DNA from: an uncultured bacterium
Lineage (GTDB): Bacteria; Omnitrophota; Omnitrophia; Omnitrophales; Abzuiibacteriaceae
DNA: 64,000 nucleotides
Assembly (NCBI GenBank): GCA_964387845.1
Contig: CAYLXA010000002.1
Location: 160,001-224,000 of the forward strand
Direction of reading: 5' to 3'
Shown here: in pieces, positions 49,450 to 49,890 of the stretch
How positions within the stretch are numbered: the stretch's first letter is position 1
How the letters are laid out: each line of letters opens with the position of its first letter
The notes under the pieces: generated by a model
The model's input: only the letters and a program-made list of their open reading frames with translations
Database searches by the model: none
Told to the model about the DNA's origin: nothing
Translations under genes and position numbers: made by a program

Positions 49450-49890
49450 TTAGGATTTATTGCCGGGATTATGGAAAAATTTTTCTATGGTGTTGGAAAT
49501 TTCGCTTGCCGTTGATACAAACGCCTGCACCTTGCAGTTTGTCACCTTTGCAATTTCGGCGATAGCTTGATCGTCCGACGGATCAGCCATGGCAATCGTC
49601 AGAACATTGCCCGCTTTATCCAATGGAACAAATGAGTGTTTACGGGCCAGGTCGGCATTAACAAGCTGAAAAACGTCAGGGTTGATTGAAAAGTGATCAA
49701 GGGGCAAATAAGCATAATTGAACTGTGTTGCCAGCGCGACAACGATGTCTTCTTCGGTCACAATCCCCATCTCAATAAGAATCTGACCGATCCGCTTATC
49801 CTTTTCGTCTTTTTGTTTGGTAAGCGCTTTTTGCAGCTGTGCCGCATCGATCGTGCCGTGCTCAATCAAGATTTCTCCAAGCCGTCTCAT
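49450..49890 (-). CDS. Stand-alone MshEN (T2SSE_N) domain protein with tandem c-di-GMP-binding motifs
   Basis: 146 aa; residues 3-26 RLGEILIEHGTIDAAQLQKALTKQ and 33-56 RIGQILIEMGIVTEEDIVVALATQ both fit the 24-aa MshEN motif RLGxx(L/V/I)(L/V/I)xxG(L/V/I)(L/V/I)xxxxLxxxLxxQ, 6-aa spacer, then the rest of the T2SSE_N fold; GGAGGGG RBS. Confidence 0.75.
   Translation of the reverse strand: MRRLGEILIEHGTIDAAQLQKALTKQKDEKDKRIGQILIEMGIVTEEDIVVALATQFNYAYLPLDHFSINPDVFQLVNADLARKHSFVPLDKAGNVLTIAMADPSDDQAIAEIAKVTNCKVQAFVSTASEISNTIEKFFHNPGNKS

Follow-up and report, generated by a model that had tools for sequence, protein, structure and literature searches.

In MshE of Vibrio cholerae (5HTL; PMC5013675), cyclic di-GMP (c-di-GMP) is bound by MshEN, a domain of two subdomains that carries tandem 24-residue motifs and is fused to a T2SSE ATPase. 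PilF of Thermus thermophilus has three N-terminal domains of this kind, termed GSPII or MshEN domains, of which B and C bind c-di-GMP, with affinities of 6 nM and about 500 nM respectively, and A does not bind it (PMC11731258). A standing question in the field is how c-di-GMP binding by MshEN alters what a pilus or secretion ATPase does, and the contribution of the N-domain to PilB was called poorly understood in a 2024 review of PilB cofactors (PMC11656802). Here we describe a gene in a 64-kb stretch of Omnitrophota DNA (contig CAYLXA010000002.1, positions 160,001 to 224,000; hereafter the window) whose 146-residue product (49450..49890 on the minus strand, ATG start) has the two-subdomain fold of MshE, its tandem motifs and equivalents of its R, L, G, L, L and Q contacts as a separate protein, encoded directly before the genes for two pilus ATPases, PilB and PilB'. 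With a probability of roughly 0.6, we take this gene to encode a free-standing MshEN-type c-di-GMP receptor that serves the type IV pilus motor encoded after it; both c-di-GMP binding by the small protein and its action in trans are inferred from sequence.

The small protein divides into an N-terminal four-helix subdomain of the c-di-GMP-binding type (residues 1-58) and a C-terminal T2SSE_N1 alpha/beta subdomain (residues 59-142). The Pfam MshEN model PF05157, which spans the C-terminal subdomain only (Wang 2016, PMC5013675), scored 74.6 bits on residues 57-142 against a cut-off of 23.1. The N-terminal half (residues 3-56) scored 64.7 bits, with a cut-off of 38, for NCBIfam NF053729, the 53-position 'c-di-GMP_motif, MshE-related' model, to which it aligned end to end (profile positions 1-53/53). 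With the TIGR02538 type_IV_pilB model, the protein reached 86.8 bits at a cut-off of 675.65 and covered profile positions 2-138 of 564 only, and Pfam found no T2SSE ATPase domain in it; the protein thus corresponds to only the N-domain of MshE or PilB. Pfam and NCBIfam scans of the 146 residues gave MshEN-related matches only, with no second domain type. The same scans found neither an EAL nor a PilZ domain, so the protein is no member of the FimX/PilZ-type PilB regulators.

Comparison with known structures agreed with the profile matches. Among PDB sequences searched with phmmer, the best-scoring match was Thermus PilF (6F8L, 8PDK; E 1e-34, in four stretches); residues 3-141 aligned with the N-termini of Geobacter PilB (E about 1e-23), residues 2-107 matched the MshEN domain of V. 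cholerae MshE (VcMshEN, 5htl; E 2e-13), and further matches were to PilB of M. xanthus and to all GSPII domains of PilF. An AlphaFold2 (AF2) model built from 16 family members, with a predicted local distance difference test score (pLDDT) of 91 and a predicted template modelling score (pTM) of 0.77, has helices at residues 4-10, 16-28, 34-40 and 46-57, followed by the alpha/beta unit. Its top Foldseek match in the PDB was 5htl, MshE in complex with c-di-GMP (template modelling (TM) score 0.73-0.76 over 139 columns), followed by the PilB N-domain of Xanthomonas (7lkm) and GSPII-B of PilF with c-di-GMP bound (8pdk). The small protein is one complete MshEN domain and nothing else. The profile search and structure prediction proposed in the initial annotation of this DNA therefore bear out its description of the product as a T2SSE_N domain only: the open reading frame (ORF) is exact, PF05157 and NF053729 both score above their cut-offs, no further domain appears, and the confident model finds liganded MshE as its best match.

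The two motifs of the small protein are separated by the 6-residue spacer KDEKDK. Compared with the strict consensus RLGxx[LVI][LVI]xxG[LVI][LVI]xxxxLxxxLxxQ, which has 11 defined positions, motif 1 fits at 10/11, the exception being T at position 11, and motif 2 at 9/11, with L replaced by I at positions 2 and 17; if Ile is allowed for Leu, motif 2 fits at 11/11. A six-frame scan of the whole 64 kb matched the motif pattern nowhere besides these two places, and 0.13 matches to the relaxed motif of Wang et al. are expected per triplet-shuffled window. Aligned with the VcMshE reference sequence of the Wang 2016 supplement, residues R3, L4, G5, L19, L23 and Q26 correspond to R9, L10, G11, L25, L29 and Q32, and R33, I34, G35, I49, L53 and Q56 to R38, L39, G40, L54, L58 and Q61. 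Across a 16-sequence alignment, G5, L8, L19, L23 and Q26 of motif 1 and G35, L38, L53 and Q56 of motif 2 are invariant.

The glycines of MshEN motifs hold the guanine bases of c-di-GMP through their backbone amides. In VcMshEN, binding was not detectable for the G11L mutant, 72-fold weaker for G40I and 12-fold weaker for Q61A (Wang 2016 supplement, PMC5013675). At motif position 1, the Thermus GSPII-B domain has K and L and nonetheless binds at 6 nM, and the consensus was extended to (R/K/L)LG (PMC11731258); the small protein has tandem motifs of this extended form joined by a short spacer. Read against the contact positions known from V. cholerae MshE, all of which are present, its c-di-GMP site is intact as far as sequence can tell, and sub-micromolar binding would be predicted from the conserved contact residues only. 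Two near-perfect tandem 24-residue motifs with a 6-residue spacer had been proposed from the letters alone, and the counts above agree with that proposal; the Arg, Gly and Gln contact positions, whose loss would mark a generic T2SSE_N domain, are in place (R3, G5, Q26, R33, G35 and Q56).

The N-domains of the two neighbouring ATPases present a different picture. Both PilB and PilB' keep the MshEN fold by Pfam; NF053729 has no match in PilB and scores 35.9 bits in PilB', under its 38-bit cut-off. Of the key positions that could be aligned in PilB, G35 is replaced by S, G42 by Q and Q56 by E; motif 1 could not be aligned. In PilB', L stands for G5, K for G12, R for Q26, S for R33, S for G35 and A for Q56, whereas the R-L that opens motif 1 and the G of position 42 are retained; its change of G5 to Leu is the same as that of the VcMshEN G11L mutant. 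Neither N-domain has the combination of Gly at position 3 of both motifs and Gln at position 24 by which c-di-GMP binding is recognized, and from the Gly and Gln substitutions, together with the VcMshEN mutant data, both ATPases are predicted to be non-binding. The initial annotation was right that these N-domains are degenerate and slightly overstated the case for PilB' in saying that the R, G and Q positions are lacking, as R-L and the G at position 42 are kept. Its term 'split MshE' is literally wrong, since PilB and PilB' each retain a complete MshEN-fold N-domain of their own. The small protein is thus an additional MshEN, better compared with a split (MshEN)2-T2SSE architecture.

The arrangement is widespread among relatives. 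Searching 5.8 billion proteins turned up 137 close homologues of the small protein, all of 146-191 aa; those named by NCBI are all Omnitrophica, except P0094, which is labelled Nitrososphaera sp. A profile search returned 3679 matches at E <= 1e-10, the best 120 of which are all small. An exhaustive profile search of 1.84 billion representatives yielded 44,888 MshEN-containing clusters; the best 150 of these include about 30 single-domain proteins (145-210 aa) and many multi-MshEN proteins too short for an ATPase. Contigs carrying homologues at 81%, 57% and 44% identity each hold MshEN-PilB-PilB'-PilC, despite differing upstream genes. A scan of one genome per GTDB species gave 80 loci, whose ORFs were profiled. 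A free MshEN of 145-185 aa is present in 55 of them (39 carry the label Omnitrophota, 15 come from third-party bins labelled 'uncultured Planctomycetia/-ales' and one is unlabelled), and the remaining loci have single full-length PilBs (Rokubacteria, Aminicenantes, Acidobacteriota, Methylomirabilota, Ignavibacteriales and others). Adding the window and three earlier loci to the 55 brings the total to 59 non-redundant loci. PilB lies directly downstream of the free MshEN in 57/59, and both ATPases are on the contig in 52. MshEN and PilB are a median of 6 nt apart, with gaps no longer than 60 nt in 49/57 loci; between PilB and PilB' the median is 3.5 nt (52 loci). The survey of other genomes suggested at the outset thus finds the arrangement again and again, mostly in Omnitrophota.

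Such constancy bears on where the output of the protein lies. Many non-pilus architectures contain MshEN (Wang 2016 Suppl. Table 4, PMC5013675), and the exhaustive search found many non-ATPase proteins with one or several MshEN domains; a c-di-GMP receptor acting elsewhere, by buffering the messenger, on exopolysaccharide (EPS) synthesis or on transcription via PilS-PilR, would be in keeping with both. The adjacency to PilB, kept in 57/59 loci whether or not they share upstream genes, and the occupation of the same place by variants with two or three N-subdomains make an output of this kind decidedly unlikely.

These variants are free proteins in which two or three four-helix subdomains precede one C-subdomain, giving two or three predicted ligand sites (Table 1). 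P0124 and P0131 hold the same place upstream of PilB-PilB'-PilC, and in the locus of the latter (L087) a GGDEF gene lies directly upstream. Seven loci have, downstream of the ATPase genes, a second gene for a free MshEN (142-171 aa), mostly directly after PilB'; in L035 it sits 3' of a 226-aa MshEN-containing ORF. These second proteins form a clade of their own; position 12 is K and position 33 is F, and G5, G35, Q26 and Q56 are all retained. Two further ORFs (L054:6977-7855, 292 aa; L066:419-1309, 296 aa) have an N-terminal MshEN followed by about 140 residues and could be a different architecture or a disrupted pilB.

A census of the key positions separates free from fused domains across the family. 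It covered 59 free MshEN domains, 57 N-domains of the first PilB, 52 of the second PilB and 20 of single PilBs from other phyla. Among the free domains, G5 is present in 59/59, G35 in 58/59, Q26 in 58/59 and Q56 in 59/59; L8 is likewise retained in 59/59. The corresponding counts for the first PilB are 0/57 (G5), 5/57 (G35), 49/57 (Q26) and 0/57 (Q56), and for the second PilB 0/52, 6/52, 28/52 and 2/52, whereas the single PilBs of other phyla have G5, G35 and Q26 in 20/20 each and Q56 in 16/20. The division seen in the window, an intact free domain beside degenerate fused ones, as first proposed from this one locus, recurs across the 59 loci. Over the same 52 loci, mean pairwise identity is 54% for the free domain compared with 40% and 38% for the fused N-domains, and the contrast is largest in the ligand-binding subdomain (54% compared with 37% and 31%). 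Neighbour joining places the free proteins in a pure clade that sits beside the intact PilB N-domains of other phyla, not beside their own neighbours. A natural contrast to the split arrangement is offered by a locus labelled Omnitrophota that lacks a free MshEN (L033:4834-8686): two tandem pilT-like genes are followed by a single 572-aa PilB, which has an intact MshEN site and scores 66 bits with NF053729.

In many relatives, genes of c-di-GMP-type signalling accompany the module. A HAMP-GAF-GGDEF membrane protein of 435-494 aa is encoded upstream on the same strand in 35 loci and is directly adjacent in about 25. In five Omnitrophota loci, a REC-HD-GYP gene is inserted between PilB' and PilC; its product is a predicted phosphorylation-controlled c-di-GMP phosphodiesterase. 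In 16 loci pilT lies directly upstream of the free MshEN, which places the sensor gene between those of the retraction and extension ATPases; in the outgroup phyla, the gene order is pilB then pilT. As a whole, the cassette ties the free MshEN to c-di-GMP-type signalling and to pilus motors.

Within the 64-kb window itself, regex and jackhmmer scans found no GGDEF, EAL or HD-GYP genes; three regex matches to 'GYP' were dismissed as tripeptide noise. This lack of c-di-GMP enzymes is one of three points that would suit an MshEN fold outside c-di-GMP signalling, whether as a receptor for another nucleotide, such as 3',3'-cyclic GMP-AMP (cGAMP), or as a constitutive structural subunit of the motor. 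The others are the variable Arg positions across the family and the reported binding of cGAMP as well by VcMshEN (Wang 2016, PMC5013675). We regard this possibility as very unlikely: across the 59 loci, the Gly, Leu and Gln contact positions vary little or not at all, GGDEF and HD-GYP genes are linked with the module in many of them, and the small protein scores above the cut-off of a curated c-di-GMP-motif model.

Under the reading that we prefer, one c-di-GMP molecule would bind between the two motifs of the small protein and reorient the C-subdomain relative to the N-subdomain, as in GSPII-B of Thermus PilF. The liganded protein would then dock, with PilB and/or PilB' or the PilM/PilC platform of these ATPases as its partner, and docking would promote assembly or engagement of the motor and so pilus extension. 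The pair of MshEN and ATPase would act in the manner of a (MshEN)2-T2SSE ATPase from which the ligand-binding MshEN is detached, and in many relatives it would work within a local cassette of HAMP-GAF-GGDEF(-like), PilT, MshEN, PilB, PilB' and REC-HD-GYP proteins. A physical partnership of MshEN and ATPase is suggested by a Rosetta-stone argument, because other phyla have ATPases with several MshEN domains in one chain, (MshEN)2-4-T2SSE (Wang 2016 Suppl. Table 4, PMC5013675), and by the mixture of domains in PilF. That a receptor can act in trans on a degenerate PilB N-domain has a precedent in FimX-PilZ (PMC8389850). A more sweeping statement, to which we give somewhat less than an even chance, is that Omnitrophota have moved c-di-GMP sensing from the extension ATPase to a diffusible MshEN subunit, with two or three modules in some lineages, which serves the PilB/PilB' motor and forms the core of a conserved HAMP-GAF-GGDEF-like/PilT/MshEN/PilB/PilB'/REC-HD-GYP cassette.

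The main rival assigns the protein a different effect. Its C-subdomain is conserved as strongly as the ligand-binding one (55% identity among the free proteins, compared with 43% in the ATPases), and GspE N1 domains, two of which (2bh1 and 4pht) are among the weak fold matches, bind the cytoplasmic domain of GspL. By analogy, the T2SSE_N1 subdomain could make the protein a c-di-GMP-controlled decoy that fills the site of the ATPase N-domain on the PilM/PilN/PilC platform; the outcome would be inhibited docking, or a choice among PilB, PilB' and PilT, instead of ATPase activation. The position of the gene between pilT and pilB in 16 loci would suit such a decoy, and small inhibitors of extension ATPases are known, for example CpiA (PMC11656802). 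However, a stoichiometric partner would explain the translationally tight spacing before PilB (median gap 6 nt) no less well than a competitor would, and c-di-GMP promotes extension in the known MshE and PilB systems (PMC11656802, PMC11731258). We consider a decoy unlikely, if the most serious competitor to a receptor that activates the motor.

Several observations weigh against an activating c-di-GMP receptor or narrow what can be claimed for it. The Arg at motif position 1 is poorly conserved in the free-MshEN family, and the window protein is atypical in having R in both motifs: at position 3, Q is commonest (29/59) and R occurs in 9/59, and at position 33, L occurs in 54/59. L at position 33 is no defect, because L is tolerated in PilF GSPII-B, where the family's usual L at motif 2 position 1 corresponds to L196; Q at position 3 lies outside the K and L variants characterized in PilF. 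Family-wide, NF053729 fails to separate free from fused domains, which the position census does: at E <= 1e-9 the model matches 59/59 free domains, 20/20 outgroup PilBs, 48/57 first-PilB and 13/52 second-PilB N-domains. Given the 48/57 matches to the first PilB, the ATPases may have residual c-di-GMP binding. The grouping in the neighbour-joining tree may reflect shared retained residues only. Even in cis, c-di-GMP changed the ATPase activity of MshE in vitro by less than 10% (Wang 2016, PMC5013675). The genes of the 64-kb window lend no support to c-di-GMP metabolism in the source genome. In the relatives, the upstream GGDEF sites are mostly degenerate (GDSDF, DDHEF, SSDEF), with SGDEF in L029, L052 and L058 and the canonical GGDEF only in L039. 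About half of these proteins keep the RxxD inhibitory site (I-site), especially those with the most degraded active sites, and such GGDEF-like proteins may be sensors or scaffolds, not cyclases.

The free MshEN of the window and the genes around it are listed in Table 1, together with the corresponding features of related loci.

Table 1. Features of the window and of related loci; positions refer to the window unless they follow a locus handle.
Feature	Position	Strand	Evidence
Stand-alone MshEN protein, 146 aa	49450..49890	-	ORF, PF05157, NF053729, PDB phmmer, AF2, Foldseek
MshEN motif 1, RLGEILIEHGTIDAAQLQKALTKQ, residues 3-26	49813..49884	-	Pattern scan; = VcMshE R9-Q32
MshEN motif 2, RIGQILIEMGIVTEEDIVVALATQ, residues 33-56	49723..49794	-	Pattern scan; = VcMshE R38-Q61
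Spacer between ligT and MshEN gene, 100 nt	49891..49990	-	Sequence
PilB, 582 aa, degenerate MshEN N-domain and T2SSE ATPase	47656..49404	-	Pfam T2SSE 454 bits, MshEN 66 bits; TIGR02538 625 bits
PilB', 569 aa, degenerate MshEN N-domain and T2SSE ATPase	45950..47659	-	Pfam; NF053729 35.9 bits; BLASTP
PilC platform protein, 408 aa	44702..45928	-	Pfam T2SSF 225 bits, two stretches
PilS-like histidine kinase, 413 aa	43444..44685	-	Pfam 6TM_PilS, HisKA, HATPase_c
PilR-like sigma-54 response regulator, 456 aa	42077..43447	-	Pfam Response_reg, Sigma54_activat, HTH_8
Type IV pilin, 155 aa	41418..41885	-	Pfam N_methyl
TPR protein, 596 aa, between pilin gene and pilM	39547-41337	-	C-terminal TPR repeats; sub-threshold Wzy_C_2 (O-antigen-polymerase-like)
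PilM, 364 aa, actin-like platform protein	38307..39401	-	Pfam PilM_2 181.8 bits
PilQ secretin, 541 aa, end of pilus cluster	35074..36699	-	Pfam Secretin, Secretin_N, STN
Single tRNA	54249-54319	-	Rfam
Second free MshEN genes	L017:10833-11261, L018:10808-11323, L019:10867-11298, L021:10837-11265, L030:6603-7091, L035:6079-6561, L048:8758-9216		
Free variants with several N-subdomains	P0121 (278 aa), P0123 (210 aa), P0124 (215 aa; L088:971-1618), P0131 (203 aa; L087:7001-7612)		
HAMP-GAF-GGDEF genes, examples	L040:5525-6943, L042:411-1826, L015:5547-6986		Pfam check (L040)
REC-HD-GYP genes	L040:10815-11951, L050:6606-7718, L015:10861-11931, L023:10940-12010, L013:10872-11936		
Loci with pilT directly upstream of MshEN	L007, L008, L010, L011, L016, L020, L027, L029, L031, L039, L044, L047, L051, L052, L058, L063		

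The cluster is a full type IVa pilus set without pilT, and no pilT was found anywhere within the 64-kb window. PilB and PilB' are 44% identical (BLASTP), both retain the Walker A, Walker B and four-Cys motifs, and the start of PilB' overlaps the stop of PilB by 4 nt (47656-47659). The two may assemble into a hetero-hexamer or work at separate times, or one of them may be devoted to retraction. PilM is a candidate docking partner for N1-type domains. The 596-aa TPR/Wzy_C_2-like protein is possibly a pilin-modifying enzyme, and two small ORFs lie between the PilM gene and the secretin gene.

Upstream, a GGAGGGG Shine-Dalgarno sequence ends 1 nt 5' of the MshEN ATG, with its GGAGG core 3 nt 5' of the ATG. 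Counts of promoter and terminator signals equalled the shuffled expectation, and no site fell inside the 49891-49990 gap. From 26972 to 63969, a span of about 37 kb, every large ORF (longest non-overlapping set, >= 120 aa) is on the minus strand, so that operon boundaries are unreadable from strand changes; housekeeping genes (pfkA, rimO/miaB-like, pgsA, cinA and ligT) lead directly into the pilus cluster on this strand. The gene had been described as the first of an operon, with a strong ribosome-binding site and a 100-nt upstream gap. The gap and the GGAGGGG sequence are there; the head position does not follow, as no promoter stands out, a single strand is used over 37 kb, and in relatives GGDEF or pilT genes closely precede MshEN. 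A c-di-GMP riboswitch in the 100-nt leader was considered and ruled out by an Rfam scan: at the gathering score, the whole window gave nothing except one tRNA, and within 49300-50100 no riboswitch or other RNA element matched at E <= 1.

The MshEN ORF shares its reading frame with PilB: one TAA and 15 sense codons lie between them, and there is no other stop (49405-49452, minus strand). This frame, together with the truncated pilB fragments found elsewhere, for example in a Paenibacillus reference strain, would fit a non-functional remnant, either a truncated copy of pilB or an assembly or frameshift artefact. A separate free-MshEN ORF of 145-190 aa is, however, kept in 59 loci down to about 37% identity, and it is better conserved than the ATPase N-domains; the downstream PilB has a complete N-domain of its own, and the shared frame is not kept in relatives. 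Conservation of the separate ORF across the 59 loci effectively rules out a remnant or artefact.

If read through, the MshEN and PilB ORFs would yield a hypothetical 744-aa (MshEN)2-T2SSE protein. Programmed read-through was rejected: the 81%-identical relative L001 has extra stops in the spacer, and in L003 and L005, which are more distant, the two ORFs are out of frame. The shared frame in the window is probably chance.

What is already known here is the MshEN receptor domain itself, and non-ATPase MshEN proteins are common in metagenomes. What seems new is a known domain in a conserved trans arrangement with PilB-PilB' that is apparently undescribed. The list of architectures in Wang 2016 contains no plain free MshEN paired with pilB (PMC5013675), and the 2024 review of PilB cofactors mentions no such partner (PMC11656802). 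Among open-access papers and preprints, we found neither a description of a stand-alone MshEN partner of PilB nor a link between Omnitrophota pili and c-di-GMP. If the preferred reading is true, the locus offers a natural trans system in which the sensor can be titrated, mutated and pulled down apart from the motor and its docking site mapped. An MshEN-type adaptor would then stand beside FimX/PilZ, CpiA and others among the few PilB cofactors listed so far, and pilus regulation in Omnitrophota would have its first handle. Omnitrophota is an uncultivated phylum, and work on it is limited to biochemical or heterologous approaches.

Set beside V. cholerae MshE, the small protein differs in detail as well as in being a separate 146-aa product: its motif spacer has 6 residues instead of 5 (the phmmer alignment with Geobacter PilB gives 7), two of the six 'triangle' leucines are Ile, and identity is about 26%. 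Thermus PilF is likewise a motor with several MshEN domains, only some of which bind c-di-GMP. All of its domains act in cis, whereas here the domain predicted to be competent for binding has a gene of its own and there are two ATPase paralogues. PA3740 of Pseudomonas aeruginosa (PMC5013675) is also an MshEN protein without an ATPase, predicted or reported to bind c-di-GMP. It differs in adding a highly diverged second T2SSE_N1 domain, in its link to swarming and in that Wang 2016 does not list it in a pil operon.

The FimX-PilZ-PilB system of Xanthomonas citri and Pseudomonas (7LKM; PMC8389850) resembles the arrangement described here in combining a degenerate, non-binding PilB N-domain with a separate c-di-GMP sensor that docks. 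The receptor there is the degenerate EAL protein FimX, bridged by PilZ, whereas the candidate here is an MshEN, and the pilus cluster of the window showed neither a PilZ nor an EAL gene. By analogy, the small protein may work like that system, though it is no member of it. In architecture, the fused counterpart of the gene pair MshEN plus MshEN-T2SSE is provided by the (MshEN)2-T2SSE ATPases of Clostridia, such as Cthe_1107 (PMC5013675), which hold in a single polypeptide what the window encodes as two.

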